A stretch of DNA of 64,000 nt, taken from an uncultured Bacilli bacterium (GTDB lineage: Bacteria; Bacillota_I; Bacilli_A; RF39; UBA660). The notes under the pieces are model-generated. The model was not told the DNA's origin and ran no database searches. It saw only the letters and a program-made list of their open reading frames with translations. The position numbers and the translations under genes are program-made. The stretch lies in NCBI GenBank assembly GCA_947585065.1, contig CANPWX010000001.1, positions 7,274 to 71,273 on the forward strand. Reading direction: 5' to 3'. This document shows positions 5,016 through 40,496 of the stretch, in pieces (positions within the stretch are counted from its first letter, which is position 1; the number at the start of each line of letters is the position of its first letter).

Positions 5016-5026
5016 GGTGAATAATA

Positions 5027-5052
5027 AAAGACTTAAAATAAGTCTTTTTTTT
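5027..5052 (+). terminator. Rho-independent terminator (AAGACTTAAAATAAGTCTT + T9)
   Basis: Perfect hairpin plus T-run right after the stop at 5015. Confidence 0.65.
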
Positions 5053-5133
5053 TGGTTTAAAATAATTAAACTATTTAAAAAAACTTTTAATTATAATAGA
5101 AAGAAAAAAGATAGATAAAGGGAGGTTTTTTAC

Positions 5134-5865
5134 ATGACAGTAGAAGACGTAAAAGAATTATTAGAATTAATAACTCCTTATATTTATGTCATCGCCCCTA
5201 TAATTTTTGGTATTTATTTAAAACTTAGAGATAAATTTAAAGAAACTCAAACAAAAATAAAAGATTTAGATGTAGCAAAAGCAAAAGAAGAATATAGCGT
5301 GTGAAAGCATGAAGAATCACAAAGAGTTATAAGAAAAATTAAAGATATGTGTAATCTTTATAAAGATAAAAGCAATGCTGGTTTAGCTCAATATTTGCAA
5401 TTAGAAAATGGAACCATGGCTACTAGTAAAATATGCAATATGTTTGTATCTTGTTTAGCTGAAGATGATAGATATGGTAGAATACCTAAATTAAGTAGCA
5501 GATTACAAAGAGTGCCATATGCAAAAGTAACAAGTTGAATTAATAAAATTATTCAAAATAAAGAAAGCTCAATTAATTATGTATTAACACCAAATGCGGC
5601 TGCCGCTGATTATTCTTTTACTGACATCATTGATGCACCAGAGATAAAATCTTGTATTATTGCTCCAGTTTATGACCAAAACGAAATATTATTAGGTATG
5701 TGCATTTTTTATTATCCTGAAATTAATTTCTGTAACCATGAACAACAAGAGATAGAACTAATTAATCGTTTTAGAACAGCTATTGAGAGCGTCTTATGAG
5801 AATATCATAATGATAGAAAACATAAAAAACAAACCTTAAAGTTGGAGGGCGAGATTAATGAATAG
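5134..5865 (+). CDS. Hypothetical protein (243 codons, 2 in-frame TGA)
   Basis: RBS AAAGGGAGG then ATG at 5134. Frame 1 is open through TGA codons to TAG at 5863-5865. It contains track ORF 5347-5538. Confidence 0.5.
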
Positions 5866-6192
5866 TTTATATGATGCAAGATTTTCAATTTTTATCATTT
5901 TAGACATATTAGGAATTTGTTTATCTGCTTTTATATTTAAAAAATTTATAAAAAAGTTTCCTAACAAGCTAATTCCATTAGTGAATATTAGTATGTCTAT
6001 GATAACAACAATTTGTTATTTAGATTATCATTTCCAAAAGAAAGCACCTATGTTATTTTTAATAGTAATGGGTTTAATTGATGGATTAGCGGCAACGGGA
6101 TTACATCAATTAGTAAAACAAACAAAACAATATATTTTTATAAAATGAAAAATTAAAAATTTTAGAAAAGACAAAAGAAAAATTGTTATGTA
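5858..6192 (+). CDS. Small hydrophobic membrane protein (possible holin-like), 1 TGA
   Basis: The ATG overlaps the upstream stop. There are two to three hydrophobic segments (IFIILDILGICLSAFIF; MITTICYLDY; LFLIVMGLIDGLAATG). The ORF continues past TGA at 6146 to TAA near 6190. Confidence 0.4.
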
Positions 6193-6227
6193 ATTAACAA
6201 TTTAAAAGAGAAAAAGGAGAGATATAT

Positions 6228-9200
6228 ATGGCAGTTAATATCAATTTATTTCCTCCTGTTTTAGACGTCTACATGCCTGCTTTTTTGATTAATAGTAGTG
6301 ATATTCAAAAGAATATATGTAGGGTCTATTTTTCTATTTCTGCTTATAATAATTTATCAGAAATAAAAAATATACAAGTAACAGTAACAAATCAAAATAC
6401 TAATATATCAGTTTTAAATAGAACTAATTATCCGTGTGAAATAATGTTAAGCGAAGTTAAAACTGATTTAACTAGAGATTCTGATGATAAATATTATGTT
6501 GAAATAAAATCAAGTGATATTGAGGGAGGATTTCAAATAAATCAGTATTATAAAGTTCAATTAAGGTTTACTGGCGCGGATGCCGCTAATGTGGATTTGA
6601 CCTTGCCTCAGGCGATTGATAGCTGGCTTACCGCAAATTTGTCTAACTTCTCAGAATGGTCAACAGTATGTTTAGTTAGAGGAATAAGTACTCCTACTTT
6701 GTCAATATTAGGATTTGATTCAACAGCAGACACAACTCTATGGTCTTTAAATAATGTTGATTTAGTTGGACATTTATCTTTTGCGGATTCCGCGGAAACT
6801 GATACATTAAAAAGTTATCAAATTAAACTTTATAATGCTAATAATGAATTATTAACTGATAGCGGTTTATTATACACTAATAATTATACTAATATAAATG
6901 AATTTAGTTATGTTTTTGAATATAACTTAAATGAAGGAGATAGTTATTATTTTACTTTTGAATATGAAACTGCTAATATGTATAAAGAAAGTTATAGATA
7001 TGATTTTATAATAATTCAAGAATCAGCAGAGATGCTAGATGCAGAAATGACTGCTATACTAGATGAAATCAATGGTTGTATTGGAATAAATATTAAAGAT
7101 AAAATGGGTGTAAATACTTTTGTTGGAAATATTACTATTAGAAGAACATCAAGTGAAAGTAATTTTACTATATGAGAAGATATACATACGGCTTCTTTTG
7201 AAGATAATTCAATATTAGATTACACTTGGTGAGATTTCACTATTAAGAGCGGTGTTTATTATAAATATTTAGCTCAAAAAAGAACTAGTGTAGGTAATAG
7301 AGGTATTCCAATTTATCCTAACAATAATGAACCTATTATGATGTTATTTGATACTATGTATTTAACAGGTCAAGGAAATCAATTAAATATTAGATTTGAT
7401 CCAAAAATAAGTTCATTTAAACGAAATGTTAGTGAGTCTAAGACTGATACTATTGGTTCTAAATATCCATTTGTAAAAAGAAATGGTTATATGGATTACA
7501 AGAGTTTTCCTATTAGTGGTTTAATAACTCATCTTATGGATCCTAGTCATTCTATAACATCAAAAGAAAAAGAATTTAGAGATAGTCTAAGTTATTATGA
7601 AGAATTCAATAAAAAGAATAGAATTGACGATTTTAATGATTGAACTTATGAGCGTGAATTTAGAGAAAAGGTATCTGATTTTTTATACGCTAATAAAGTT
7701 AGATTGTTTAGATCTGCAACTGAAGGAAATATATTAGTTAGATTAATGGATATTAATTTTACTCCTAATGAAATATTAGGTAGAAGAATTTATACATTTA
7801 CTGCGACAGCTTATGAAATTGATGAATTTAATATTAAAAATTGTGATAAATATGGAATAAATAGCTTAGGTACATACGACACACAATTACAATTTAATCA
7901 AGATTATATAGGCCAATTTAATGAAATTATACCTGCTGGTATAAATGTATTAGAACTAATTGAAGAAAAATATAAAAAATATACAAAAGAAGGCTATGTA
8001 GTTAATATAGATTATTTAGATTTTTTAAGGATTGAGATGGAAGATAAGCCTTATTTGATTAATGAAAATGCGGACGGGCCTTATGTAGTTAATGACCGCA
8101 TTCGTGCGCGTGAAGAACTGACTTCCGCATATTTAGGCTATTTAGTTTATATTAATGAACAGCCTATTGTAATTAATCCTGAAGGTATATATGAATTAAA
8201 AGGTGAAGATATTAAAATTACTTCATTACGTTTTCCTATTGATACAAAAATAAATATTGATTATCATACTTATATTAGCCAAAAAGAAGATAATACTCAA
8301 CTAGTAAAAACTAATACTTTTTATAAAAGAGTTGGACAATTATGAGGGGGATTTGCGCCTAATGATTCTTTATATCAACAAATTTGAAATAAATATTTTG
8401 AAAAATATTCAACGTATATGCAAACATTATTGTCTTTAGATGAGATTAAAGTAGAGGCTGAACCTGGTACTGTAGTATACGTTAAGGAATCTAAAGATAA
8501 AGATTTTCAACGTCATGTAATTGGTGAAACTCATACTTTAGATTTTTATTCTGAAGATTGCACAATTAATGGATTATATTTTGCAGGCTTGCATTTTGAA
8601 GAAGCTAATGAAAGTGAAAAAGAAAAAGATATACTTCCAAGTAATAAATTTATAGATACTGGGATAATATTAGATAAGTATGTTAGTGATACATCAGATT
8701 TAATTGAAAATGGTGTATATACATTGGCAGATGATTATTTAGAAGTATTAGACCATTTTGAAGGAGCTTACAGTTTTAAATCTAAAAAACAATTTCCACC
8801 AGATACTGCTTCCGCGAATCAAGATAATATAGAACATAGTGATATAAATAAAGCATACACTTTATTATTAGATAGAGTATATGAGTCTATTGATGATGAT
8901 GGCGGTATATTGGTTGATCATGAATTTGTTGAAGATGTCCATGGAGATTATTGAACTGGAGAACTTTATGTAGATGGTAATTTTGATGAAAATCAAATCA
9001 ATCAAATAGATGCCAATAACTCTGAAGATTTTATTAAATCAGGAGATAAAGTATTAAAAAATGGCTATACATTTAAATCAAAGATGCAAGAACCTGAAAA
9101 TGATACTGCTTCAGCCAATTCTAAGCAAATGGAAAAGTCAGAAACTACATATACAATAAGTTTAAATAAAGAATATGACGAATACTATAATTTAGTAGTT

Positions 9201-9377
9201 TATAAAGAAATAGATAAAGAATATGCTTTATTATTACAAAGATTAATAGATGAAGCAAATAGTAGATATTTATGGCATGATAATAAATGGTGATTATTTA
9301 CTAAAGATAATGATGTTCTTTGTTCTGTTGAAGCTCTCATAGATTACTGTTGTGAAATAGTAAAGGGGAGATATTAA
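6228..9377 (+). CDS. Very large virion structural protein (about 1049 codons) formed by TGA read-through of track ORFs 6228-7175, 7338-7643, 7704-8345, 8418-8954 and 9084-9293
   Basis: All five segments are in frame 0 and separated only by TGA codons. RBS GGAGAG then ATG at 6228, TAA at 9375-9377. Late-arm position suggests a baseplate or tail protein. Confidence 0.5.
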
Positions 9378-11434
9378 TGAAAAAGAGATATGAATATTCT
9401 AATGATGCTGATTTTTTAAATGAATTTAACAATGAGAAATTAAAAGAACAATTTGTAAAAATAACCATTTTAGATTGATTAGAAAGACCTATCCAAGAAG
9501 TACAAGGTATTGTGACTGGAGGAACTATTAATTTAGATGGTAATTCTAGTGTTCGAAGAACAGTTAATCTTTCTGCTTTTATAAATGAAGAAGAAATAGC
9601 TAGAGTTACCAATCTAGATAATTTATTTGCTATGAATAAAAAAATGTTTTTAGAAATTGGTTATATAAATACAACCGATAAATATTTACAATATCCAATT
9701 ATATGATTTCCGCAAGGACATTTTATAATGTTTAATCCAAATTTAACTCATTCAGTGGGCGGAAGCTCGCTTCAAGTATCATTAAGAGACAAAATGTGTT
9801 TATTAAATGGAGAGTGCGGAGGTACCATACCCGCATCTACGCAATTTGATGAATATGATACTATTGATGATAAAGGCAATTGGATAACTCAAAAGCCGAC
9901 TTTTGAGCAAATTATAAGAGAACTTGTAAATCATTTTGGAGGAGAACAACTTGGAAAAATAATTATAAGTGATGTTCCTAGAAGAGTAAAAAAAGTAATG
10001 AAATGAATTGGAAATTCTCCAGTTTATTTAATTAATAATGAAGGTTCATACATTATGAGTACAAATTATGCGGATGTCGCAGATAAATCATATCAAGTAT
10101 TTGATTATGGTGAAGACATAGGATATATATATACTGATTTTACTTGTCCTAGTGAATTAATTGGAAATGCTGGAGATAATGTATGTACTATATTAGATAA
10201 AATAAAAAATATGCTAGGAAATTATGAATATTTTTATGATGTTGATGGAAATTTTATTTGACAAGAAATTAAAAATTATCTAAATACAACAAAAGCAACT
10301 GTAGATTTAGAAAAAATGACTAAAGATGATTATTTAATTGATGCAAGTAAAGGTAAAACAGTATACAATTTTAATAATAGTGTTTTAATTACTTCATTTT
10401 CTAATTCTCCTCAATACAATAAAATTAAAAATGATTTTATTGTATGAGGAATTAAAGAAAACGCTAATGGAAATAATGTTCCTATTAGATATCATTTAGC
10501 TATTGATACTAAACCAAAAATTGGAAATATATATGATGTATTTTTTTATGAAGATCCCGATGATGGATTAACAAAAGCAAAAATGCCTATATTATATAGA
10601 AGTTTTGCAGAAATTAATAAAACGCCTGGCGCAGCTGGAATATTTTATAAAGCTACTGATACTAATATAATATATCAATGAAATGGTAATAAAGAAAAAT
10701 ATGAAGAAGTAGATACTGAGACAACTCAATTTGTTAAAGTTCAAACTACGGATTGACGTTCTGAATTGTATTTACAAGGAGTTCAAGCTGAACCTCTAGG
10801 GATAGCTTCAAATTATTATTATACAGAATTGATGAACGAGTGGCCAAAGCTGTATAATTTACAAAAGGATTTTTACATAGATAATGAAGGTACAAAAATA
10901 TATACTGGTGGATTTTATGATGAAGTATTAAAAACTCCTAGTAATATAGATTATTACCTAGATTTTATAGATTCTAATGCTGCGATATCGCAATTCAGCG
11001 TTAATAATATTGGTCGTCGCACTCACGTTGTTAATAGTAATGATATTAATTGTGTATTTGAACCTACTATTCCAGATTTTATAATAATAGAATTAGGTAG
11101 ACCAGATACTGAAGAAAAACGTAGAGAATGCGAAGCTAAAGGGCAAAATTACATTCAAGTGGATACTTCAATATTTAATTTATTAGCTACTGGTGGAAAT
11201 TTAAATTCTGCATATAATGAAGTTAAAATGTTATTGCATGAATATACAAGTTATAATGAGAGTGTTAATATTCAAACAGTTCCTATATATAATTTAGAAC
11301 CAAATATTAGAATTGGCGCTAGGGATATAGAAAGTGATATCTATGGCGATTATATGATTTCTAGTATTTCTATCCCTCTTGATGTTGGTGGAACAATGTC
11401 AATATCAGCAACTCGAGCTTTAGAAAGATTTTAG
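9377..11434 (+). CDS. Structural protein (about 685 codons) joining track ORFs 9512-9706, 9728-10006, 10055-10261 and 10766-11434 via TGA codons
   Basis: The ATG at 9377 overlaps the stop of the previous gene (TAATGA). All segments lie in frame 2. TAG stop at 11432-11434. Confidence 0.5.
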
Positions 11435-11453
11435 AGTAAAAGGAGTGTTAAAG

Positions 11454-12155
11454 ATGAGTTATAAATTCGGACAATTTAGAAAAAGTCAATTGCAATCTTA
11501 TTTAACACCTTTAGAATATACTTTGGATGATATAAAAGTAGAATCAAGTCTTTCTAAAGGAGTTATTTTTGTAGATAAAGGAATTGATTTATCTGGAAAA
11601 AATATATTACAAGCATTGACTGAAAATAATAAACAAAGAAGTTATTATTTAAGATTTAGAATAGAAAAACAAGAAACTAATCAATTAATTAATATTAGAT
11701 TAATTAATACAGATAAAAATAAAGATAATGTTCAAACCATAAAAACTATAAATGTTGAAAGCGGAAAAGATGATTATTCTACATTTGAATTAGTTATAAG
11801 CCCAAATGATAATCATTCTTATAATCAAATATTTTTTGAATTAAATAGAGAATTAATTGATTATAATACTCTTAATAGCGATGGTACTTATGGTAGAACA
11901 GTTAAAATAATAATTGAAAGATTAGATGAAATATATAATGTTATTGATTTTTTAAACCCTTCTATTGAAAATAAAGGAAGATTGAAACAAATTGGTATCC
12001 AAGGTCCTCCTGGTTTATTAATGAGCATTAATGGAGAAGATATTAGGATTGGTAGAAGTGGAATATATGAAATTAATAATAAAATAAATGTTACTTTTAT
12101 AGGCTTCATTATTGAAGCAGATGAAAAATATTTCATTTTAGATTATCAATATTAA
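11454..12155 (+). CDS. Structural protein (234 aa) with C-terminal GIYE motif
   Basis: RBS AAGGAG then ATG at 11454. The ORF is intact without TGA. C-terminus reads DIRIGRSGIYEINNKINVTFIGF..ILDYQY. Confidence 0.55.
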   Translation: MSYKFGQFRKSQLQSYLTPLEYTLDDIKVESSLSKGVIFVDKGIDLSGKNILQALTENNKQRSYYLRFRIEKQETNQLINIRLINTDKNKDNVQTIKTINVESGKDDYSTFELVISPNDNHSYNQIFFELNRELIDYNTLNSDGTYGRTVKIIIERLDEIYNVIDFLNPSIENKGRLKQIGIQGPPGLLMSINGEDIRIGRSGIYEINNKINVTFIGFIIEADEKYFILDYQY

Positions 12156-12168
12156 GGAGGAAAGCGCA

Positions 12169-13434
12169 ATGGAATACAATAGTTTTTATGGAGGAAGAAG
12201 AGGAGCTTCTTTCGTTATTATAAAGTCTTATAAAAGTATTGCTGATATGGTTGCCGCTTTTCAACAAGGTGGAGCTTATAAAGTAGTTAATTATGATGAA
12301 TATGTTTTAATTGATACTGAAAATAAAAATGATAAAGATAATGGTAAAATTTATCGTAGAGGGTATGAATATAACAATTCTATGGGTGGAGCTGATTATA
12401 TTGGACAAATTGTCGGTCCAGCTGGTATGGCTCCGCATACTGAAATGCATACTATTGAAGAAGTAGAACAAATAGCTGAAAGAGATGGTTTTGAATATAG
12501 AAAAGGCAGCGGAAGCTATGATGTTCAAGGAAATAATTTAATACCTGGAAAATATGTAGAACCTGGTTCTGGAGTTATTCATTATAATGATGAAATTAGT
12601 TGAGCTTATTGTTCTGTAAGAGATATCAATTCACATGAATCAACAGCTCATATTGGTTTTAGATTTCCTTATACTGTAATTGATTATACAACTACATCAA
12701 TTAGTACATATAAAGATGGTAATTATACTGATACATCTAGTGCAGAAAGAATTGATGATGGCAGTCATCCTTTTTATGAAAAATGAAATATTAAAATACC
12801 TAAAGGTATTAAAGGAGATACATTAAAGAATTTTAGAGTTATGACTGCTAATACTGCAATTGAGCCTTACTCAGGTAGAGATGATGATATTGCTAACAAT
12901 AGAAAAGTATTAGTTTATGATTATTATATTTATGATGATAAAGAAGATGGAATTTTTAAAACTTATTATGTAGGAGATTATAATAAAATTTCTGATGTAA
13001 AAGTTGAAAAGAATGGAAAAGTTACTATTAGTTATGAACATGATGATGATGATAACTATTTATTAAACATTCCTATTTCAGTTAATATATTAACAGGAGA
13101 AACAGAAGGTAGTGGAAATCAAAAAATTGAAATAACATATGCCGATGGGACTAAACAGGAAATAGGTAATCCACTTAATTATATAATTAAAACTGCTATT
13201 GATAATAGATATCATTTATTAGTTTATTATTCAGACCCTGAAAAAAGAAATGCTGGAACTAAAGTTTCTTGAGATGGAAATGATGATTGGACTGACTTAG
13301 GATATATTGGTGACGGAACTGGGAATGGAGCAGTCGCTGGGAAAGAAGATGACGAAGGCGTTAAAGAAGTTGCTAACCATATGCCTGTATATAGTGTATG
13401 GATGATAGTAGAAGAAGATGGTAACAATGAATAA
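12169..13434 (+). CDS. Structural protein (about 421 codons) joining track ORFs 12169-12603 and 12841-13272 through TGA codons
   Basis: RBS GGAGG then ATG at 12169. Frame 1 is open through four TGA codons to TAA at 13432-13434. Confidence 0.5.
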
Positions 13435-21901: not shown

Positions 21902-22444
21902 TTAAACTTTTTGATACAGTTTAACCTCTTTTGTTTTTAAACTTTTTTGGACATCTATAACTCTTTGATTGCGGGAACCGCGTAGCCAGAGCGTAATGTC
22001 TCGTTCTGATTGAATATATGGCCCATCTATTAAAACATCAATTTTAGATAGTATTGTATGTAAGATAAACTCATCTCTGATTAGATCTTCCCAAACATAG
22101 CCTGTTCACAAGAATATACGCGTGTTTGGGCAATCTTGTTTAATCACATCAAGGATTGCCGCCGTATTCACAACGTTATCATTATCTTTCCATAATGGCT
22201 CGCCACCAAGAATACTTAAATTTCTTTGAATACCATTAGCTGTTAAATCTTTTTTAATAGTATCAATCAATTTACTCGTCCACATTTCATCTCCATAGCT
22301 ACTATCTCAGGCTTCTGGGTTATGACACCCAGGACAATGGAGAGGGCAACCAGATAGGAAGACACTTACACAAGTGCCTTCGCCATTAACTATGTCGTTT
22401 GGATTGATACCAGCAACATGAACCATGCCTGTCATTATTTCCAT
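21902..22444 (-). CDS. nrdG: Anaerobic ribonucleotide reductase activating protein NrdG (radical SAM), 2 in-frame TGA = Trp
   Basis: Reverse translation gives ..GEGTCVSVFLSGCPLHCPGCHNPEA[TGA]DS.. and ..NTRIFL[TGA]TGYVWEDL... These align with E. coli NrdG CPGCYNKSTW and DIWVWTGY, so both TGA sit at conserved Trp positions. Confidence 0.8.
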
Positions 22445-24902: not shown

Positions 24903-27900
24903 CTAGTCTTCAGTAATACCTTCTCTATCGTGAGTTAAATTAATACTACCATCATAATAAACATCAGTTATCTTGTAAAGTTGGTGGCAGCCACTATTCT
25001 TGTATGTCTTTGTCACAAACGAATCGTCCCTACGATAACCAGCAACTAATAACTTAATGCCTCTTGTGAACCAGCCCTTTTCTACTACGTGTTTCACTCC
25101 ATCTTCGCCAAGCTCACTTAATTGTCTATTATACATTGCATAATATTCTTTTGTAAATTTAACATTTACAACACCTGTTGGAGTTAATAATGTTACAGAT
25201 GAACGATTGTCATTTTTGCCAATAACTGTTCCAATTATCTTATAAATTTTATAAATAGGAATATCATGACCATTCCTTTTGAAGAATGTATCTACAATAG
25301 GTTCAGATGGAAGATTATTAAAATCTACAATACCATATTTATCTACATTAACATTTTTTAATTCATGTTCATGATAATAGAAACATAATGCCTCCATTTC
25401 ATATGAGCTAATATTACCTAATGCATATTTATCCCAACACTCTTTAAATAATAATGTATTAAATTTTTTTAATATTTCTTCTTGATTTTCTTTAATCCAA
25501 TCTCTTGCTCCATCCATTACGTTTTGATAAATTTTTTCCCATATTGTTTGTTGGATACAAGTTAAACCATTAATTACTTCAAGTTTATCCAAATCAAAAT
25601 TCTTATTATAAAATTCTTCACAAGCATTATCAAATACAAAATATTTGCCTACTTTTTTATTTGCTTTTAAGTATTTTGTAAATAAATAAGTTCTTTTTTG
25701 TAAATCTAAACTTGCGGGAACTAAATCATGTTGAATTAAACCATTAAAATTTTGTAGAGTTATTCTTTTTTTTGCTTCACATACTTTAGATACATAATAC
25801 ATCATAACAAATTTTCGAGGTTCAATACCCATCTCAGCGGCGGTTGCCGCATCAGTCTTATCAAATGCTCCACCTTTAATTAAACTAAACATTGCACTTT
25901 TATTTAATGGACATCTATTTATAAAATCTGCTATATTTATATAAGGTCTAAATTTAATTATTTGTTCTATTGTTGAACTATTAACATTACTTAAGGCTTT
26001 CATACCAAATAATATTTCATTATTTTCAACATCTGGTTTAAAACTGTAACTAGATTTATTTATATCTACTAAACTAACTTTAATGCCTCTTGATATAATA
26101 TCTCCAATAGCTTTTGCAATTTTACCATAATCAGTTGCTTTTTCTTTTTTTTCAACAATATTACCTTCATCATCTTCTTCATACATTGAATCATCTTCTT
26201 CAAGACTACCGCTATTAACAACTAAACATGCGGTATTCCAATATATTGGATTCCATCTTGTTGCTATATACATAGTTTGGAAACCTATAAAACTATATGC
26301 CAACGCATGAATGATACTAAATGAATAACCCATTTGAGGTCCAACTCCGCATGTCCAAACGTAATGTCCTAAACAAGATGATTTTGCTTGAGTTAATACT
26401 TTATTTTTTAATTCAGGAATTTTACTCATTTGTTTTTTACCAACTACTTTACGTGCGGCATTTGCTTCCGCAAGAGTAAAACCACAAATGTTTTCATCCA
26501 TTAACATTCTCATAAGTTGCTCTTGACTTGGTGGAACTCCATAAGAACTTTTAAAATATGGTTCTAATGCTAATTGTTCTGTTTGAGTTAATCCATACTC
26601 TCTCATTTCTTTATACCATAAAGATATATCATTTTTAAATCTAATATATTTTTCCATTGGAGCTTCTTGACCTTTTTCCGCAGTCATTAATCTCATTAAA
26701 CCATTAGCATCCGCCATTTCCATCATACTTTGAGGTTTAATTTTCTTTGCAGCTTGTCCTCCAACTTCGCTATCAAATTGGAAGATATTTAATACACTAT
26801 TCTCTTGAAGAACTTTCCAAGTATTTTGGTCTTCAATAGGTAAAACACTTGGATGAAAATATTTATCATATACTTCTCTTAATGTTAAATCGCTATCAAT
26901 TTCTCCATATTCTTGTAATAACCTAATTGCTTCACATAATTTATCTTGGACTTCTGTTACTAGAAAATCATATTTAGTCATTCCGCATGCTTCACACATA
27001 TGCAAATCATATGCAGTTATAATCTCACCTTTTGGTGTTCTCATAAATGTTCCAAATTCATATGGGTCTTCATCAAATAAAATTACACCTGATGCATGAC
27101 TACTTCTTTTATTTACTAATCCTTCAATACCTTCCATAATCTCTAATAAACCTGGATACATATTAACTTCATTAATAAACATTTTAATTGGTTTTCTACC
27201 TTTATCTTCATTACCATTTATAACATCACTTAATGACCATAAGAAACCACGTTCACTAGGAATTAATGAACTTAAATATTGTGCGGTATCTACATCTATT
27301 CCATCCGGGTATTCTTCACTTCTGTACCCGCGGCAAGCTGTTAAAATTGTTGAACGAGTTCCTTCTGTTCCAAATGTTGCAATTAATGTACAACCTAGAT
27401 TTTTACGACTTAAATCATCAATTTCTGCATTAAATTTTTTTCCACGCTCTTCTTTTATTTTCTTTAAGATTAAAGGTCTTTTACTTGGACATAAATCTAA
27501 ATCTATATCTCCTAATTCAACTCTTTCTTTATTCAAATATCTCCAAAATGGAAGATTCCATTTAATTGGATCAAGTTGAGTTATACCTAATAAATAATGA
27601 TTTAATCCTGAACAACTTGAACCACGACCTGCGCCAACCATACTGCCGCATTCCCAAAATAAATCTACATAATGTTGTAAAGTTACTGGATACATAAACA
27701 TATTAGTTCCTAATTTTTCACTAATTGTTTGTTTAATATCAGCTTCTTCTTCAAGTCTACTTAAATATTCATCATTATATTTATCTATTTTAATTAATTT
27801 ACTTACACATTCATTTACCCAATATCTATTTACTTTATCATCTGATATAAACATATCTTTTAATATTGGATATTTATTTATTTCTTCTGGAATAGCTTTT

Positions 27901-28859
27901 ATATAATCTTTAACTTCTACTTTTGGAATAGTTTGATTATGTGCTAAACTAAAATTCTCTATTTTATTATAAATTTCAAAACTATTACCAAACATTTCAT
28001 TTATAAATTCTTCACTAAAATCTGATGCTTTTAAATTTTCTATTATTTCTTCATTACTTTGAAGATAAGCATATTCATAAAAACTATCTACTTCACGTTC
28101 TCCAAATTTACTATTTAAATATGCTTTATGAACGTATCTATCTTCTTTTTTAAGATAATGTGCATCACTACCAATTACCATTTTTAAATCAAATGCTTTT
28201 GCAATAGAAGGAAATCTTTTATTAACTGCAATTTGTTCTGCACTACAACCTGGCGCACATTCTATATAAAAATTATCTTCGCCAAACACTTCTTTACACC
28301 ATAACAAAAAATTTACTATATTATTATGTGCAGTCTCCGCACCATATACATCATTTATTTTTTCTGCATTTATTAAATTTAAAGTATTAACACTTAATTC
28401 TCCACCTAAACAAGCAGTTGTTGCTATTAAAGTATTTGGATATTTTTTCATTATTTCTTCAATATCACTTTTTAAAGTTGGAACTCTTTCTAATCCTCTG
28501 TCCCAATAACTATTCATCCATGCTCTTGATGATAACTCTCTTAATGCTCTATATCCTTCTTTATTTTTTGCAATTAAAATAAAGTGATAATATCTTTGTC
28601 CCATATCACGTGTATCTGTTAAATAAATTTCATTACCTAATGCGACTTTAAAGTCAGGATGTTCTTTATGAATTTCGTCTGCATAAAAATTAACTTCTGG
28701 TGCTGCTGAAAGACACTCATGGTCTGTGATTGCAATACCAGCTAAACCTAATTCAATTGCTCTATTAATTAAATTTTTTGGACGATTGATTGAGTCTAAA
28801 AGTCTCAAATTACTATACATAGTGTGTGAGTGCGGCTCAAAACGTGGATTCATAAACAT
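24903..28859 (-). CDS. dnaE: DNA polymerase III alpha subunit (DnaE-type, N-terminal PHP domain), 1318 aa, no TGA
   Basis: PHP motif HSHTMYS..DH at the N-terminus. Size and overall architecture fit DnaE. All roughly 20 Trp codons are TGG. Confidence 0.8.
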   Translation of the reverse strand: MFMNPRFEPHSHTMYSNLRLLDSINRPKNLINRAIELGLAGIAITDHECLSAAPEVNFYADEIHKEHPDFKVALGNEIYLTDTRDMGQRYYHFILIAKNKEGYRALRELSSRAWMNSYWDRGLERVPTLKSDIEEIMKKYPNTLIATTACLGGELSVNTLNLINAEKINDVYGAETAHNNIVNFLLWCKEVFGEDNFYIECAPGCSAEQIAVNKRFPSIAKAFDLKMVIGSDAHYLKKEDRYVHKAYLNSKFGEREVDSFYEYAYLQSNEEIIENLKASDFSEEFINEMFGNSFEIYNKIENFSLAHNQTIPKVEVKDYIKAIPEEINKYPILKDMFISDDKVNRYWVNECVSKLIKIDKYNDEYLSRLEEEADIKQTISEKLGTNMFMYPVTLQHYVDLFWECGSMVGAGRGSSCSGLNHYLLGITQLDPIKWNLPFWRYLNKERVELGDIDLDLCPSKRPLILKKIKEERGKKFNAEIDDLSRKNLGCTLIATFGTEGTRSTILTACRGYRSEEYPDGIDVDTAQYLSSLIPSERGFLWSLSDVINGNEDKGRKPIKMFINEVNMYPGLLEIMEGIEGLVNKRSSHASGVILFDEDPYEFGTFMRTPKGEIITAYDLHMCEACGMTKYDFLVTEVQDKLCEAIRLLQEYGEIDSDLTLREVYDKYFHPSVLPIEDQNTWKVLQENSVLNIFQFDSEVGGQAAKKIKPQSMMEMADANGLMRLMTAEKGQEAPMEKYIRFKNDISLWYKEMREYGLTQTEQLALEPYFKSSYGVPPSQEQLMRMLMDENICGFTLAEANAARKVVGKKQMSKIPELKNKVLTQAKSSCLGHYVWTCGVGPQMGYSFSIIHALAYSFIGFQTMYIATRWNPIYWNTACLVVNSGSLEEDDSMYEEDDEGNIVEKKEKATDYGKIAKAIGDIISRGIKVSLVDINKSSYSFKPDVENNEILFGMKALSNVNSSTIEQIIKFRPYINIADFINRCPLNKSAMFSLIKGGAFDKTDAATAAEMGIEPRKFVMMYYVSKVCEAKKRITLQNFNGLIQHDLVPASLDLQKRTYLFTKYLKANKKVGKYFVFDNACEEFYNKNFDLDKLEVINGLTCIQQTIWEKIYQNVMDGARDWIKENQEEILKKFNTLLFKECWDKYALGNISSYEMEALCFYYHEHELKNVNVDKYGIVDFNNLPSEPIVDTFFKRNGHDIPIYKIYKIIGTVIGKNDNRSSVTLLTPTGVVNVKFTKEYYAMYNRQLSELGEDGVKHVVEKGWFTRGIKLLVAGYRRDDSFVTKTYKNSGCHQLYKITDVYYDGSINLTHDREGITED

Positions 28860-32537: not shown

Positions 32538-32810
32538 TTAAAATAGGTAGTCACCAGACCCAGTTATTTCATAATCAGTTATGAAGATTTGTGGTGTAAT
32601 ATTTCCCATCCATTCATTTTGATTACATTTACCTACTACATTAATTGAAATATATGTTTCAGTAAAATTTTGCAATGCATAGCATTCTTCTTCACTAGCA
32701 TCAAATTTCATTAAACTAATTTTATTAGGAAGAGTTATTTTCAATGTATTATTTGTTTTTCTATAAACAGTTACCATATCTTTAGTTATTTTTAAATTTT
32801 CAACTGCCAC
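32538..32810 (-). CDS. Hypothetical protein (90 aa)
   Basis: Intact ORF. Confidence 0.35.
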   Translation of the reverse strand: MAVENLKITKDMVTVYRKTNNTLKITLPNKISLMKFDASEEECYALQNFTETYISINVVGKCNQNEWMGNITPQIFITDYEITGSGDYLF

Positions 32811-32834
32811 AAGAGCTTCATTAAAATCTTTACC

Positions 32835-34367
32835 TCATAGATTATTTAAATTAGCAATAGTAAGAATTTCATCAGATTGAACATCAGCGCCTTGATATAT
32901 ATAATCTACATAATATATTGGCTCTGCGGAAATGTTCGCTAAAGCGTCATCAGTTTTAGATAAGAATTCTTCTAACCTATCTGCCGCAATGCAAAGTCCA
33001 AAAGCATTTTCATGTCCTTGGCACCATTCAGCACCCGCCGCCTCACATATAGATTTAAAATTAGTGATACCAGTTTGTTCATATCCACGTGCAGAACCTT
33101 GATATGTTATTTTTTCATCTGCTACCGCATTATATCTACCAGTTTCAAAATTAATCTCAGTAATCTTCATTGTTTTATAATTTGGTTCAATTACTTTTGT
33201 TAATATACAACAAGGTCTTTGATATTTATTTGCTATCTTATTAGCAATTAAGCCTGCTATATTTTTATCTATTTCTTTTATATCTAAAGCAAATAATATT
33301 ACTTTATGATTTAATAAATTTTCTTCTTCTATTGATTCTTCTAATATTGACATAGTTAAATCTTGTGCTTTTGTTTGTCTATTTTTTACATTAGTAGACA
33401 TGCGGACAGCCTGATCAACTAAACGTTCCATTTCTCCAAGTTTATGACCACGTTTATTCGAAGGTATTAATTGAAATGCTTCATAATTAAGCATTGACTT
33501 AAATAATAATTCTTTTTCTTCTATTGTACCACTGCGTTGAACTGCATTAATCATTGGTACGATATAAAATGCGGCGTCTATTGAGCGAATATGTTCGCCT
33601 AATTTAAACTTATTTTTTTGCCACATTTCAAATATATATGGATTATGAATTCTTGCAGGCTCAAAACCTTTCAATATTAAGTGTTTTGTTTCTATTGAGG
33701 TAAGACTCATCATATCTCCAGTAAGACCCAATGCCACTAAATCAAGATATTGGTCTGCATAATTCTTACCAAATAAACTATCTAAATATCTACAAAATTG
33801 TCATACTACACCAACTCCTGACAATTCTTTATTTGGATAATCACATAATTGATTATTTATTGTAATAGCATATTCACTTAAATGGTCTGCTAAATGATGG
33901 TCTAATATAATTGTTAATATTCCTTTATCTTTTAATTCTTTATGTTGTTCATAATCATTTGAAGATGAGTCTGGAGCTATTACTAATGAAAAATTTTTTG
34001 AATTAATATAATCCATAGTATCTTGTAAACCGTGTTGTTTGCCTTCATGAACTCACCAATGTAAATGATTTTCTACTCATGTTGGGAATACATCGTGAAG
34101 ATAATTGATTAATAATGCGGAAGCTGTAAAGCCATCGCAATCGCAGTCTACTATTACTACTGCATCTTTATCTTCACTAATACAAGATATAGCGGCAACC
34201 GCTGCAGCCTTTAAACAATCTTGTCCAAACGCACTTGGTTCATTAATATCCGCATCAGTAGTATTCAAATAATGTTGAATTTCTGCATATGGAATATGTC
34301 TATTAGTTAAAATAGTTTCTAAAGCGTTGTAATTTTTATTTATTGGGTTAATTAACTTATATTTCAT
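32835..34367 (-). CDS. DHH-family phosphoesterase (RecJ-like ssDNA exonuclease-like), 3 track ORFs joined by TGA
   Basis: Motif I DCDCDGFTAS and motif III ILDHH. The junctions at 34077 and 34053 are TGA, in frame. A C-terminal DHHA1-like region is present. Confidence 0.6.
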
Positions 34368-34368
34368 A

Positions 34369-34587
34369 TTATCTAAATCCTTTCATTTCTTCTGGAAACA
34401 CAACTGCATCTTGCATATTTACTATTCATTTACGACAAGCAAAATAGTCATCAAAATGTATTTCACACTCACCAGATTCTGTAACAGTATTGTCTGGGAA
34501 TTCATAACGAATATATCCAGTAAACCATACATCTCCAAATCCTGAAACTCCATATCCATTCACTATAAATTTACTTTTCATCTTCAT
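34369..34587 (-). CDS. Small hypothetical protein (about 72 aa, 1 TGA)
   Basis: RBS AAAGGAAG then ATG. Reverse translation gives MKMKSKFIVNGYGVSGFGDVWFTGYIRYEFPDN... Confidence 0.35.
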
Positions 34588-34771
34588 CTTCCTTTAATTC
34601 ATATCATTTACATAATTTTGGCAGATTATTAAAATCTATTATTTTATCTTTTAATTTACATTTGCCATAGCAAGTGCAGTAATGACATTCTGCATAAGAA
34701 TATCATTTATAATATTTACATCATTTGCATTTTTTATGTTTAGTCCTATATTGTTTTGTTTTTATATCCAT
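34588..34771 (-). CDS. Tiny Cys/Trp/Lys/Tyr-rich protein (about 60 codons with 4 TGA)
   Basis: RBS GGAGAG then ATG. Reverse translation gives MDIKTKQYRTKHKKCKWCKYYKWYSYAECHYCTCYGKC... Confidence 0.3.
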
Positions 34772-35865
34772 TATAACATTACTCTCCTTTTAAATAATTC
34801 TTCAAAAGTTTCTTTATCTTTATCAATAGGACTATCTTTATAATCTAACATATCCCATTTATCAAACATAAAACTCACTTGTACAAGCGGACTATATTTT
34901 TTATTTAAATCTCTCAACTTTTTAGTCCAGGTTTTAAATTCATTATCACCAATCTCTTTAAACTGTTTATCAAAAGCTATAATAATTTCTTCGACGTCTA
35001 ATTCTTTTAAAAGCTCGACTTGATATGCGGTTAAGCTACTGCCGCACACTGCAACACTAATATCATTATTAATCCCAAATAAACTGGCATATTTGAGGCA
35101 GCTCTTCTCGCCTTCGAAGATTATAACCTTTTTATATTTTCTTATATTATCTTTACTATTGTTTAAATTATATAAATTAAAACCCAATGGATGATTATAC
35201 ATTTGATAATTTAATATTGCTGGTTTATATTTTCCATTTACTTCTTCTTCTTTAATTAAAGTTCTTTCTCTAATTCCTATTAATTTTCCGTTTGGAGCAT
35301 AATGCGGAATTACTATTCCCCAGCATACTGGATCAAATTTAATACCTGCCGCATCCATTACTTCTTGAGATATTCCTTCATTAATCCACATAGGAATTTT
35401 AGGATGCGGAAGATGTTTTAAAATTTTATCATCATAATATTTAAGTTCAATTATTCTTTCTTCTTTCTTTTGAGAAATAGATTGCTCATATTTATTAAGA
35501 ATTTGCCAATCACTAAGTTCACTATTATCATAAACAAAATTTTCGGCTGTAACTGTTAAACTAAAAAAACTAATAATAAAATTAATTGCTTGATACAATG
35601 TAATTTCATTATTTTCTAATTTTTTTATTTTTATAATTAATTCATAAATATCAAAACTTTCAGAACAATCTGTATAACATTTAAATAATTTTGTATTATC
35701 ATAATAATATAACTTATGACTTTGGCCTCCATGGCATATTGTTCTAGATGTAATAATATCATTTTTAATTGCGGGGTCACCGCCAAGAGCGAATAATAAA
35801 TCTTTTACTTGTTCTATTGATAAACTATTTTTTATATTTTCAGACCATTCTTTTAAATTATCCAT
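34771..35865 (-). CDS. DnaG-like primase (CHC2 zinc finger + TOPRIM)
   Basis: Zinc finger CHGGQSHKLYYYDNTKLFKCYTDCS. TOPRIM-like IIFEGEKSCLKY. Confidence 0.6.
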   Translation of the reverse strand: MDNLKEWSENIKNSLSIEQVKDLLFALGGDPAIKNDIITSRTICHGGQSHKLYYYDNTKLFKCYTDCSESFDIYELIIKIKKLENNEITLYQAINFIISFFSLTVTAENFVYDNSELSDWQILNKYEQSISQKKEERIIELKYYDDKILKHLPHPKIPMWINEGISQEVMDAAGIKFDPVCWGIVIPHYAPNGKLIGIRERTLIKEEEVNGKYKPAILNYQMYNHPLGFNLYNLNNSKDNIRKYKKVIIFEGEKSCLKYASLFGINNDISVAVCGSSLTAYQVELLKELDVEEIIIAFDKQFKEIGDNEFKTWTKKLRDLNKKYSPLVQVSFMFDKWDMLDYKDSPIDKDKETFEELFKRRVML

Positions 35866-35892
35866 TTATCATTCACCCCTTTATATATAAAT

Positions 35893-35921
35893 ATTATATC
35901 ATATTTTATTTATATAATCAA
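35893..35921 (-). promoter_or_regulatory. Sigma-A-type promoter (TTGATT-N17-TATAAT) for the primase gene
   Basis: Reverse complement reads TTGATTATATAAATAAAATATGATATAAT. RBS AAAGGGGTG and ATG follow. Confidence 0.55.
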
Positions 35922-35922
35922 A

Positions 35923-37479
35923 TTAAAATGCACTAACTTGCATTTTAGGATTTACATTGATTTTGAAATCAGGTAAATTAATAAGTTGATAATTATAATC
36001 AGTAGCAAACATAGGTATTACTTTACAAGTTCCTTGGTTTGCTTTGCACCATAATAATATATCTTTATATTGGCCTCTACGATTTTTATAAACAGATATT
36101 TTTATATCAGGTTCATCAAATTTAAATCTAGCTATTACTTCTCTTAAAGCCTCTTTGTCTTCTTTACTAGTTTTTAACATAATCATACCTAAATCTATTT
36201 TATCTGCTATTGATTTTGCACCTCTTAATAAATTTTGGTCATATTGTTGTGCAGTAAGATAATCAGCATTTAATTGCGTTGCTGTCATTATAAATACACC
36301 ATATTCATTACATAAGTCTTTTAATCTTATTGAAATCATAAATAAAACATTATCTTCACGAAGTCCTTTAATCCCAGTTTTTGAAGTAACTTCACTCAAT
36401 ATCTTCATACTTGTATGTAAGTAATCAAAAAATACATATCTAACTCCCCATTCATTAATAGCAAATTTAATTGTATTTTCTATATCTTTTAATGAAAAAT
36501 CAGGTAATTTTTTAATATATATAGGACATTTTTTAAGTAACTCTGCAGCATACATTACACGTTCTAATTCTCCAATTTCATAAGCATTATATATAATATG
36601 ATTTTCATTTACATCAGATAAGAAAGCTAGCATCATTGTTTGAATTTCATCTATTTCTTGTTCAGTAGTAATAAATATCGTAGGCTCTTTAGTTCCATTT
36701 TCAATCCATTTACCTTGTACACTATCATATATTTTATCACAAGCTATTGAACAAGAATCAGCAATCATACTACGAGTTTTCCCAATACCAGTTGCGGCAG
36801 ATCTCAAATAAAACTTTTTTAAGCGGGCGCCACGTGTTATTGTATTAATTAAAGGCCCATACATTGGATATCCAATTTCAGGTCGCTTTTGTAAACTATC
36901 AATTAATTCAGTAACTCTATCACCAGCTTGAATAAAATTTTCATTTGTATCATCTACATATTTCATTCGTATTTCAGTTATTTTTTTATCAATAATATCA
37001 GCTATTGATTCAAGAGAAGTGTTATCTAGCCAATCTTCTTGAGCTTGTTTTTTCTTTGCATCAAGAATATTGTTAATATCATATAACCAAGATAAATCCA
37101 TTCCTGCATTATTATACATTCTAAGTAAAGTCATTTTTTTCATTCTTTGATAATAATAATCGAAAGTAGATAATTGAATATTTTCTGTTATTTTTTGTAA
37201 ATATTCTGCGCCCTTATATGTTTTATATACTGCTAATTTTTTTGGTCTATCTTTTAAATAATCTTCTATTGTGTTAATATTGACATCTTTAACTCCTAAC
37301 GCATGAAGATTATAAATAGAACCAAATAATATTTTATGAAATTCTTCAGTAAAATCATCTTCACTAAAAAAATAATTTTCATTATCTAATAATGATATAT
37401 TTTGATAAATACAACCAATTACTTGAATAGTTGCTGATAAATCTACATATTTTGCCATATTAACCCTCCTAATTATCAT
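35923..37479 (-). CDS. DnaB-family replicative helicase
   Basis: Walker A LRSAATGIGKTRS. DnaB-like motif VFIMTATQLNAD. N-terminal DnaB-like domain. Confidence 0.6.
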   Translation of the reverse strand: MIIRRVNMAKYVDLSATIQVIGCIYQNISLLDNENYFFSEDDFTEEFHKILFGSIYNLHALGVKDVNINTIEDYLKDRPKKLAVYKTYKGAEYLQKITENIQLSTFDYYYQRMKKMTLLRMYNNAGMDLSWLYDINNILDAKKKQAQEDWLDNTSLESIADIIDKKITEIRMKYVDDTNENFIQAGDRVTELIDSLQKRPEIGYPMYGPLINTITRGARLKKFYLRSAATGIGKTRSMIADSCSIACDKIYDSVQGKWIENGTKEPTIFITTEQEIDEIQTMMLAFLSDVNENHIIYNAYEIGELERVMYAAELLKKCPIYIKKLPDFSLKDIENTIKFAINEWGVRYVFFDYLHTSMKILSEVTSKTGIKGLREDNVLFMISIRLKDLCNEYGVFIMTATQLNADYLTAQQYDQNLLRGAKSIADKIDLGMIMLKTSKEDKEALREVIARFKFDEPDIKISVYKNRRGQYKDILLWCKANQGTCKVIPMFATDYNYQLINLPDFKINVNPKMQVSAF

Positions 37480-37978
37480 CTTCCATATTGAATAGTTTTA
37501 TTTGGTTTTTTGTATATACTCGCGGAGATGCAATTTCAACTTCTTCAACTTTTGGTTTATATTCATCAAGTCCATCATTAAATATTTTAGCCATATATAA
37601 AGCATAAAAATATTTTTCTGCTTGGCTATATATAAAAGGTATAATTCCAATTCCCTCTTGAGATAATTCAATAGAATTGTCTTTTATTTCATACCACCAA
37701 TATAAAGTTTTTAACATGCCTGAATATGTATATCCATATTCTTGGCGGAAATCATGTATTTGTTTTTTTATTTTAGCACTTATTGTATTTATATTAAATA
37801 ATTTTTTTATATACTCTTCTAATTTATAATAGTCTTTTTCATCTTGAGTCATGGATGCATCTACTTTATCAGCGCAATCTTTATGTGCATATCTACGAGT
37901 TCCTACTTCTACAAAAGGTTCGATATCTCTATTAAATTTTTGTCCACAATATTTACATATAACAAAATGTGCTGCCAT
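37469..37978 (-). CDS. Hypothetical protein with N-terminal zinc ribbon (possible helicase loader or replication accessory)
   Basis: CKYCGQKF..HKDC. Overlaps the helicase gene start. Confidence 0.35.
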   Translation of the reverse strand: MAAHFVICKYCGQKFNRDIEPFVEVGTRRYAHKDCADKVDASMTQDEKDYYKLEEYIKKLFNINTISAKIKKQIHDFRQEYGYTYSGMLKTLYWWYEIKDNSIELSQEGIGIIPFIYSQAEKYFYALYMAKIFNDGLDEYKPKVEEVEIASPRVYTKNQIKLFNMEDDN

Positions 37979-38089
37979 AAATATACACCTTCTCTTTAAT
38001 TATATTTTATCATAAAATTAAATAAAAATCAAAAAGAGAAGATATAAATTAAGTTTTAATATCTTCTCTTTCATCTCCTTTTATCTCTT

Positions 38090-39073
38090 TTATTTTACTA
38101 ATTCTTTTAAATCTAAAACTATCAAATTAAGCATTTCTACTTGGTCTCTAGTGCATTGACTAGCTTTTTTACCTTTACCTAAATATTTTTCAGTAATTTG
38201 TGTTATTTTAGGTGTCCATACAGTTTCCATATCTTCTTTAGAATTAGAATTAATAATGCCACCAACAATAGTATTAAATTCTTCCATTACTGTATCAAAA
38301 TCTAATTCTTCAATTTTGAATTCATTTTTAGTATCTGTAATAAATTCATTGCCTTTATTTTGAGCTTCTTTATCAATAGCATTATTTAATGCTTTAACTA
38401 AGCTATCATAATCGGCGGCAATATTTTCTTCTATATATTTGAAGCGGCAACCGCACATAATAGTATTGTCTTTTGAACGAAGTTGAATTCTTCTTTCATT
38501 ATCTTCTGTTGAATACATATATCCATATATATCAGCCATATTTTCAACAATTCTATTATATGTATCTGATACTGATGGTCTAATAATTGAATATTCACTT
38601 CCATCAGTTTTTTTAAATGTTGCTTCTTTATAATGAGCAATAAAATATACTGCATAGCCTAATTGAGTTATACTTCTAAATACGTTTTCAAATTCTTTTT
38701 TAAGTAAAGTCCAACCTTGTCCATAAGGAATTTCACCAATAGCATTAACACCATTTTGGTCACAAATATATTTTTCACAATAGGATGCGGCAATATCAAC
38801 AGTATCAATAACAATAGTTGCAAAAGTTTCTTTAACTTCTGGTTTTTTTAATTCTCTTACGACTTGTTTTATTTCAGACCAAGATGTAATATCTTGTGCC
38901 ATAATTCCAGCTAATGCATTATATCCACGTTCAAAAGCAAGTAATAATGGTTTAGGCATTTCCGCACCTAAAGTAGTCTTACCAACTTTTGGAGCTCCAT
39001 ATATATAAGTTATATATCCACTTAAATCTCTACTAATTTGATGAGGTTTGATTTCTAATAAATTAATTGCCAT
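38090..39073 (-). CDS. Sak4/AAA_24-like recombination ATPase
   Basis: Walker A IYGAPKVGKTT near the N-terminus. Size and phage context fit Sak4-type ssDNA-annealing ATPases. Confidence 0.5.
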   Translation of the reverse strand: MAINLLEIKPHQISRDLSGYITYIYGAPKVGKTTLGAEMPKPLLLAFERGYNALAGIMAQDITSWSEIKQVVRELKKPEVKETFATIVIDTVDIAASYCEKYICDQNGVNAIGEIPYGQGWTLLKKEFENVFRSITQLGYAVYFIAHYKEATFKKTDGSEYSIIRPSVSDTYNRIVENMADIYGYMYSTEDNERRIQLRSKDNTIMCGCRFKYIEENIAADYDSLVKALNNAIDKEAQNKGNEFITDTKNEFKIEELDFDTVMEEFNTIVGGIINSNSKEDMETVWTPKITQITEKYLGKGKKASQCTRDQVEMLNLIVLDLKELVK

Positions 39074-39096
39074 AATTAATCTCCTTTATATCAAAA

Positions 39097-39125
39097 TAGG
39101 AGGAGGTTATTTTCTCCTCCTTTTA
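39097..39125 (-). terminator. Rho-independent terminator (GGAGGAGAAAATAACCTCCTCC hairpin + T-run on - strand)
   Basis: Perfect hairpin and T-run downstream of gene 39127-40077. Confidence 0.55.
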
Positions 39126-39126
39126 A

Positions 39127-40489: not shown

Positions 40490-40496
40490 TCCCTCC

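Follow-up and report, generated by a model that had tools for sequence, protein, structure and literature searches.

Evidence that in-frame TGA is read as tryptophan in a large low-G+C phage genome, and a candidate five-armed decoder tRNA in its relatives

The DNA analysed here, called the window throughout, is a stretch of 64,000 nucleotides from contig CANPWX010000001.1 (GenBank assembly GCA_947585065.1), filed under an uncultured Bacilli bacterium. Its source is a low-G+C gut or rumen phage. The gene in question is nrdG, which encodes the anaerobic ribonucleotide reductase activase and in which a first-pass annotation had read two in-frame TGA codons as tryptophan. Three genes of the minus strand can be set out at once:

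22444..21902, minus strand: nrdG (anaerobic ribonucleotide reductase activase), one 180-codon frame with two sense TGA codons
22435..24771, minus strand: nrdD (778 codons), with two sense TGA codons, at 24084-24082 and at 22815-22813, and a stop that overlaps the probable start of nrdG
32538..34409, minus strand: DHH/RecJ-like exonuclease gene with five in-frame TGA codons

TGA is the sole interruption of the nrdG frame, occurring at codon 46 (22309-22307) and codon 113 (22108-22106), and the frame closes with TAA at 21904-21902. Read on the minus strand, the two contexts are ..GCPLHCPGCHNPEA[TGA]DSSYG.. and ..NTRIFL[TGA]TGYVWEDL.., exactly as they had been quoted in the first-pass annotation. 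Translation probably begins at the ATG at 22435, which shares bases with the nrdD stop (TAATG). Counted from there, the product is 177 amino acids long, equal to the length of its closest homologues. The assignment to NrdG draws on three features. The CxxxCxxC motif for the 4Fe-4S cluster is found N-terminally as CPLHCPGC; Pfam Fer4_12 matches residues 19-163 along its full profile (1-137) with 133.7 bits, against a cut-off of 22; and nrdD lies immediately upstream on the same strand. Escherichia coli NrdG likewise has the CxxxCxxC and GGEPL motifs, the Fer4_12 domain and a gene position directly downstream of nrdD, but it is only 36% identical (BLASTP, E = 3e-26), and in the window protein two of the six tryptophans are specified by TGA.

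The pieces of nrdG that a standard reading would yield are one intact gene and not separate genes, since a single Fer4_12 match spans both TGA codons, and hence all three pieces, and since none of the codons ATG, GTG and TTG occurs in frame in the third piece (67 codons). The first-pass annotation had itself raised the alternative of separate genes, each with its own start, and it is this lack of a start in the third piece that such an arrangement does not accommodate.

The two TGA codons coincide with tryptophan columns of the family. From a search that returned 6072 NrdG homologues, 120 database homologues were aligned with both TGA codons masked as X. Column 46 held W in 117 of the 120 sequences (Q in two, a gap in one) and column 113 held W in all 120. 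In the annotated genome of E. coli K-12, the NrdG motifs CPGCYNKSTW and DIWVWTGY place W opposite both masked positions, and the motifs that the first-pass annotation had given for this protein, CPGCYNKSTW and a W before TGY, agree with the actual sequence. Codon 46 directly follows the CxxxCxxC iron-sulfur cluster motif, and PflA, the pyruvate formate-lyase activase (3c8f), also has W at this first position. The four TGG codons of nrdG sit on poorly conserved columns of the same alignment. Because W accounts for about 1% of residues, the placement of TGA on tryptophan columns is not a matter of chance. The proposal that both codons fall on conserved Trp positions, rather than on gaps or non-Trp columns, was thus borne out for NrdG.

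The neighbouring gene gives a more qualified picture. NrdD is the glycyl-radical class III reductase and resembles NrdD proteins of solved structure (8p23, E = 1e-119). In TR-TP1, a Thomasclavelia phage with the standard code, W stands opposite both nrdD TGA codons. In 8p23, the nearest solved structure, the two columns hold F and Y. Since distant solved homologues carry F, E and K at the one site and Y, R and E at the other, Trp at the NrdD sites is specific to this lineage. In the RecJ-like gene the first TGA may lie upstream of the true start. A comparison of 120 homologues showed W, F or Y at four TGA columns in every sequence except one. The expectation that the TGA columns of these proteins would be Trp-enriched therefore held for NrdG and the DHH nuclease (W or aromatic), and for NrdD it held against TR-TP1 but not against the solved structures.

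A third comparison was made with the tail protein at 9377-11434, using 150 representatives of 50%-identity clusters and listing the top six residues for each of its seven TGA columns. W made up 61% of column 1, 98% of column 2, 82% of column 3, 75% of column 5, 30% of column 6 (a plurality) and 80% of column 7, at a background frequency of 1.2%; column 4 was F in 96%. Gly and Cys were both missing from the two nrdG columns (120 homologues), from the top five residues of each of the four RecJ-like columns and from the top six of each of the seven tail-protein columns. These alignments support a reading of TGA as Trp, not Gly, both inside and outside nrdG, which is the direction of reassignment that had been proposed from nrdG; across nrdG, nrdD, the RecJ-like gene and the tail protein the columns are W or aromatic. 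Only TGA, never TAA or TAG, interrupts the homology-supported genes of the window, despite its AT-rich DNA.

The same signature is visible in coding density. Open reading frames (ORFs) of at least 100 amino acids cover 0.66 of the window under code 11. That fraction grows to 0.86 if TGA is taken as a sense codon, but only to 0.71 if TAG is. A rise in coding density of at least 5-10% was used as a recoding criterion by Kienbeck et al. (PMC10879173); in the window the rise is from 0.66 to 0.86. A non-overlapping ORF set of the window contains about 75 in-frame TGA codons in 23 ORFs and about 139 TGG codons. A few of the TGA codons near ORF 5' ends (for example in 9320-11434 and 40497-41135) may precede the true starts.

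These codons are unevenly distributed over the gene blocks:

5..13434, plus strand: tail-gene block (tail spike, fibre and tail proteins), 44 TGA against 12 TGG, with TGA in 8 of 10 ORFs
24903..28859, minus strand: DNA polymerase III alpha gene (DnaE type), 1318 amino acids, 17 TGG and no TGA
34771..54039, minus strand: replication genes nearly free of TGA (primase-like, DnaB, AAA_24, NAD-dependent ligase, GyrA, GyrB, RNA ligase)

The last two lie within a minus-strand block (16866-55432, about 12,000 codons) that has 25 TGA against 110 TGG. As a share of Trp codons, TGA thus stands at 0.79 for the tail block but 0.19 for the minus-strand block (Fisher p = 6e-15). The products of the latter comprise PolIII alpha, an SF1 helicase, a primase-like protein, DnaB, AAA_24, an NAD-dependent ligase, GyrA, GyrB, RNA ligase, dUTPase, NrdD and NrdG. 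There is no TGA at all in the genes for DnaE, the primase-like protein, DnaB, AAA_24, the ligase, GyrA and GyrB, and 34771..54039 has just two, one in a ClpP-like and one in a GIY-YIG gene. The A-ending fraction of the Lys, Glu, Gln, Leu and Arg codon pairs, by comparison, is about 0.9 in every block. Because these other A/G pairs are some 90% A-ending throughout, TGA is near mutational equilibrium in the tail genes and is selected against in the replication genes.

This distribution modifies the earlier picture of the window. The statement that nearly every late ORF is fragmented at TGA applies to the tail block (8 of 10 ORFs) but not to the plus-strand ORFs at 13418-16832, which are nearly TGA-free, with a single TGA over seven ORFs. 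Nor are nrdG and nrdD late genes: they belong to the block of replication and nucleotide-metabolism genes, in which TGA is uncommon elsewhere.

The G+C content of the window is 24-35%. Its cumulative GC skew peaks at about 14-16 kb and reaches a minimum at about 55-56 kb, both coinciding with switches of the coding strand; the pattern may be compared with that of phages with bidirectional replication or strong transcription-coupled skew.

Homing-endonuclease-type genes, each with an in-frame TGA, are found at 59812-60558 (plus strand), 41199-42131 (minus), 30431-31216 (minus) and 63821-64000 (plus). Two have GIY-YIG domains, one has a weak, sub-threshold match to Pfam DUF5889 and one is HNH-like by eye. 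Compared with a collinear relative of the window (L019, introduced below), the GIY-YIG gene at 59812-60558 is inserted. The last of the four runs into the window end and begins MEEK[TGA]KKYYKNYSVSNYGRVRND..:

63821..64000, plus strand: start of an HNH-type homing-endonuclease-like ORF (from a reading of the sequence only), cut by the window end, with TGA at 63833-63835

Related phage sequences bear on how freely TGA and TGG are exchanged. Syntenic contigs from other samples (L004, L005 and L007) have TGA at both nrdG positions, and at three further Trp codons they and the window have TGG and TGA swapped, in both directions. A wider family was defined as the 79 IMG/VR loci found with the window DnaE, at 59-85% identity (L038-L116). 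In IMG/VR relatives, nrdG codon 46 is TGG in 21 cases and TGA in 11, and codon 113 is TGG in 19, TGA in seven, TAT in three and GGC in one. Since both codons occur at the same nrdG positions among relatives, TGA and TGG behave as synonyms in the family. The comparison rests on gene-specific counts; an all-ORF count was set aside, as spurious antisense ORFs lengthen once TGA is sense. The dnaE genes of the family contain 20 TGA and 1431 TGG codons.

Judged by ORF coverage under codes 11, 4 and 15, some family members look TGA-recoded (for example L045, L091 and L101), others look TAG-recoded (L066, L069, L072, L074, L082 and L098) and others near-standard (L059 and L060). The source contig of the window appears to be about 73 kb long, and the relatives' genomes reach 80-145 kb. 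The closest IMG/VR relative is IMGVR_UViG_3300037400_002591 (L019), whose DnaE is 85% identical and which is collinear with window positions 52007-63720 at 68-84% nucleotide identity. Likeness to isolated phages is limited to phages of Bacillota, the most similar of which infect Thomasclavelia. Phage TR-TP1, one such isolate, is annotated with long uninterrupted genes, and counting TGA as sense hardly lifts its ORF coverage. It was rejected as a genome-wide standard-code comparator, because besides NrdD it gave few and weak matches (23-37% identity), and it served for nrdD and nrdG only. In several relatives (L007:6787-10008; L001/L003, that is, TR-TP1) nrdD is split by an HNH endonuclease gene in an intron- or intein-like manner; nrdD of the window (22435-24771) is continuous. 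No exact copy of a 58-mer from the window end occurs in genome_contigs, and neither an exact 32-mer of the window's transfer-messenger RNA nor a search with one protein gave a match in viral_contigs.

Towards its right-hand end the window contains a cluster of RNA genes:

59647..63174, plus strand: phage tRNA cluster, 8 tRNAs and a transfer-messenger RNA (tmRNA)
62600-63018, plus strand: tmRNA, 56.4 bits with Rfam against a gathering score of 47, missed by ARAGORN

The cluster tRNAs are Cys-GCA, an odd tRNA with anticodon UGC, Met, Gln, Ala, an odd 78-nucleotide tRNA, Ile-GAU and Ile-UAU. The same order is kept in L019 (tRNA-Cys, Met, Gln, Ala, tmRNA, Ile(UAU)), which continues with Thr, Gly, Glu and Asp tRNAs, a 96-nucleotide tRNA with anticodon UCA at L019:17176-17271 and, directly after it, tRNA-Trp(CCA). 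The UCA tRNA lies about 2.7 kb past the point that matches the window end at coordinate 64000. Because L019 is collinear with the last 12 kb of the window, we infer that the window's own phage encodes a UCA suppressor just beyond the window end, at a site about 2.7 kb away.

Some details of the cluster may be recorded here. The tag frame of the tmRNA, as read, is ..VSKVKSLFAVNSVVFA, followed by TAA, and relatives have tmRNAs with similar tags (ANKVKSLFSFNSVVYA, GNLFSKITNKVKSLFAFNCVAFA), so the tmRNA is a family trait. The atypical AT-rich tRNA at 62388-62465 (plus strand, 78 nucleotides) has a perfect 5-bp anticodon stem with a 13-nucleotide loop or a long bulged hairpin, and ARAGORN labels it Cys(ACA), or Thr(UGU) with a 6-nucleotide intron. 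It was rejected as a suppressor tRNA, there being no TCA within the 13-nucleotide loop. A second AT-rich tRNA, at 61949-62018 (plus strand, 70 nucleotides, anticodon UGC), has A-C and U-U mismatches in its acceptor stem.

The UCA tRNA of L019 belongs to a conserved group of about 93-97 nucleotides with five arms, found in the relatives of the window (the L019 and L027 copies are 96 nucleotides long and are labelled 'SeC' by ARAGORN):

L019:17176-17271 (plus strand), L027:1219-1314 (minus strand), and L031-L037, L117-L158 and L160-L166: five-arm tRNA sites

Every aligned sequence has A1-U72 and G73, and most have G2-C71 to G5-C68, acceptor features that are the bacterial Trp identity elements. 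A first anticodon-type arm occupies the normal position, with loop CUUCAAA and anticodon UCA. A second, with loop CUCCAAA and anticodon CCA, stands in place of the long variable arm of class II tRNAs. Pattern scans of IMG/VR returned 28 five-arm tRNAs, mostly on contigs of 79-230 kb with a few on shorter fragments, along with 12 ordinary four-arm UCA tRNAs that have the same D-arm; contigs of metagenome-assembled genomes added a few more of the five-arm kind. The core U-C-C-A of the extra loop was present in 28 of 28 sequences (as CTCCAAA, GTCCAAA or GTCCATA), the loop having been left unconstrained in the scan. Five-arm tRNAs occur in 7 of 23 long family contigs, none of which looks TAG-recoded, and the tandem of UCA tRNA and tRNA-Trp(CCA) is found in L019, L033 and L034.

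The five-helix structure was evaluated by covariation over 18 distinct sequences. Under the five-helix model 98.9% of cells pair; with the partners shifted by 1-3 columns the figure drops to 35-51%. Both-sided changes were seen in 17 of the 26 pairs, among them four of the five pairs of each anticodon-type arm, and the observed values were reached in none of 500 shuffles. A thermodynamic fold of the 96-nucleotide tRNA, which placed the acceptor, D and UCA arms correctly but mispaired the 3' half, was discarded in favour of the covariation. A full-text literature search of incomplete coverage found no description of a tRNA with two anticodon arms.

We consider it about 80% probable that the window belongs to a large phage genome of double-stranded DNA in which TGA is a sense codon for Trp, and that this recoding is driven by the phage in a host that keeps the standard code. 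Phage-driven recoding, rather than a property of the host, is indicated because the TGA share differs between blocks (0.79 against 0.19) while other A-ending codons stay at about 0.9, and because a single DnaE family includes TGA-recoded, TAG-recoded and near-standard-looking members. On this account, the phage itself would change the reading of TGA, by means of a tRNA-Trp-derived opal suppressor with anticodon UCA encoded past the window end. The TGA-free replication genes would be translatable from the start of infection, and the TGA-rich tail and other late genes and the homing endonucleases would give full-length products only once the suppressor tRNA is present; nrdG, nrdD and the RecJ-like gene, with two to five TGA codons each, would fall in between.

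As to the decoder itself, a possible, if rather doubtful, candidate is a previously undescribed five-armed derivative of tRNA-Trp, in which the UCA arm would read UGA and the extra CCA arm would keep up charging by tryptophanyl-tRNA synthetase (TrpRS) in a standard-code host. The extra arm would present CCA to TrpRS and so offset the loss of recognition that comes with the C34-to-U change. In the window's own phage such a tRNA gene would be expected at about 66-67 kb of the contig. Alternatively, the extra arm may be a relic of duplication, one of the two arms may be removed during processing, or two conformers of the tRNA may read UGA and UGG.

Several observations weigh against the phage-driven account. 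No UCA-anticodon tRNA was found in the 64-kb window by ARAGORN (standard, code-4 and intron settings) or Rfam (gathering and permissive thresholds), and neither RF1 nor TrpRS was seen among the window proteins scanned. TGA is not confined to late genes: it also occurs in nrdG, nrdD, the RecJ-like and a RuvC-like gene, in the homing endonucleases and in two genes at 54070-55432, at the very start of the minus-strand block. Because of the TGA codons in these nrd, RecJ-like and RuvC-like genes and at 54070-55432, a simple early/late switch is too neat. Certain relatives carry TGA even in dnaE. Finally, code 4 may have been used to call some of the homologues counted in the columns, so that their W could itself come from TGA, a caveat that leaves the comparisons with bacterial proteins and with E. 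coli untouched.

Of the other explanations, the one that survives best, though we regard it as unlikely, is that the host itself uses code 4 in the style of Mycoplasma or Spiroplasma, the phage merely following suit without need of a decoder. The low G+C content (24-35%) and the failure to find a UCA tRNA in the window would suit such a host, and Thomasclavelia, host of the most similar isolated phages, belongs to the Erysipelotrichales, a lineage near the Mollicutes. A host-wide code 4, however, would not select against TGA, which supplies just 19% of Trp codons in the minus-strand block; AT pressure would be expected to make it the main Trp codon genome-wide, which it is not. Close relatives, moreover, look TAG-recoded or near-standard, relatives carry a UCA tRNA of their own, and the genes of TR-TP1 are long and uninterrupted, with little ORF coverage to be gained from TGA as sense.

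Less probable again is low-level read-through by the near-cognate host tRNA-Trp(CCA) in the absence of any suppressor, with TGA acting as a translational attenuator. UGA is the leakiest stop codon and tRNA-Trp its usual near-cognate reader, and here too the missing suppressor tRNA in the window would be accounted for. But the tail genes at 1040-2887, 2976-5024, 6228-9377 and 9320-11434 hold 7-9 TGA codons, from which ordinary rates of read-through would give almost no full-length protein, although the products are structural; and the closest relative encodes a UCA tRNA.

Very little probability attaches to TGA being read as Gly (code 25, as in Absconditabacteria and Gracilibacteria), Cys or selenocysteine. 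Code-25 phages do exist (Borges et al., bioRxiv 10.1101/2021.08.26.457843), and ARAGORN's 'SeC' label on the relatives' UCA tRNA might suggest selenocysteine. Against this, W dominates the TGA columns, with G and C missing from those of nrdG and from the top residues of the other 11. About 75 sites in 23 ORFs are unlike a selenoprotein pattern, and the relatives' UCA tRNA has the Trp identity elements A1-U72 and G73, not the architecture of tRNA-Sec. That the TGA codons are real stops, marking pseudogenes, assembly errors or split genes with separately translated pieces, is equally far-fetched: a code 11 reading does give short fragments, but in this AT-rich DNA TGA is the sole interrupting codon, TAA and TAG never, the interruptions sit on Trp columns, relatives assembled independently from other samples have TGA at these codons too, and in nrdG one Pfam domain runs across all three pieces, the third of which has no in-frame start codon.

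Other genes of the window may be mentioned briefly. The minus strand encodes a peptide deformylase (21389-21853), the ClpP-like protease (40497-41135) and the RNA ligase (52780-54039), and a small plus-strand ORF (59184-59576) has homologues in relatives that carry an Hsp20 domain. The deformylase, the ClpP-like protease and the Hsp20-like protein point to a role in host translation and protein quality control. A 499-amino-acid protein (17444-18943, minus strand) is SPFH/flotillin-like by eye, its only family match being to a PHROG 'lipoprotein' family.

TGA-to-Trp recoding concentrated in the late genes of low-G+C gut or rumen phages is already a known phenomenon. In Mycoplasma and Spiroplasma, which also use code 4, UGA is likewise Trp and is read by a tRNA-Trp with UCA anticodon. 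In Mycoplasma capricolum the UCA tRNA gene stands in tandem with tRNA-Trp(CCA), the arrangement also seen in L019, L033 and L034. In those bacteria, however, code 4 holds genome-wide and TGA is dominant throughout, whereas in the phages the share of TGA follows gene class and differs from one sister phage to another.

Code-4 recoded gut phages, including an 'Agate' clade of about 127 kb, were described by Borges et al. (bioRxiv 10.1101/2021.08.26.457843; later in Nature Microbiology), who report phages in standard-code hosts that switch codes during infection, and an intron endonuclease in which TGA is likewise preferred. The window and its family resemble these phages in low G+C content, in the concentration of TGA in structural genes and homing endonucleases, in replication machinery that largely keeps the standard code, in close relatives on codes 4, 15 and 11, in genome sizes of about 100-140 kb, in GC-skew blocks that track gene orientation and in a suppressor tRNA that is not always detected. 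They differ in that nucleotide-metabolism genes (nrdD, nrdG and the RecJ-like gene) carry TGA too, and the five-arm architecture of the relatives' UCA tRNA is not described by Borges et al. With the Agate clade the agreement is confined to genome size, TGA pattern and apparently mixed-code relatives, the window having no terminase by which it could be placed.

In crAss-like and Lak phages, late genes are recoded from TAG to Gln or from TGA to Trp (PMC7886860, Yutin et al. 2021; PMC9523058, Peters et al. 2022). Shared with them are the reassignment of a stop codon in late-gene blocks, standard-code hosts (as we infer here) and phage-encoded suppressor tRNAs (here in the relatives). The window nevertheless represents another lineage, with a DnaE-type PolIII alpha, DnaB, gyrase and NAD-dependent ligase. 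Experimental proof of such phage recoding exists for code 15 only.

For annotation, the window and its many relatives must be translated with TGA as Trp. The standard code loses about one fifth of the coding sequence and splits nrdG, nrdD, the RecJ-like gene and most tail genes. With the window, gene-class-dependent recoding gains a further well-documented case, and the DnaE family, with its mixed-code appearance, is useful for studying how fast phages change their code. The most interesting lead, which lies outside the window and is seen in its relatives, is the conserved five-arm tRNA-Trp(UCA). If its extra arm does maintain charging with Trp, it would be a new solution to the identity problem of suppressor tRNAs with a mutated anticodon, and the five-arm tRNA would then offer a ready-made design for engineered opal suppressors.

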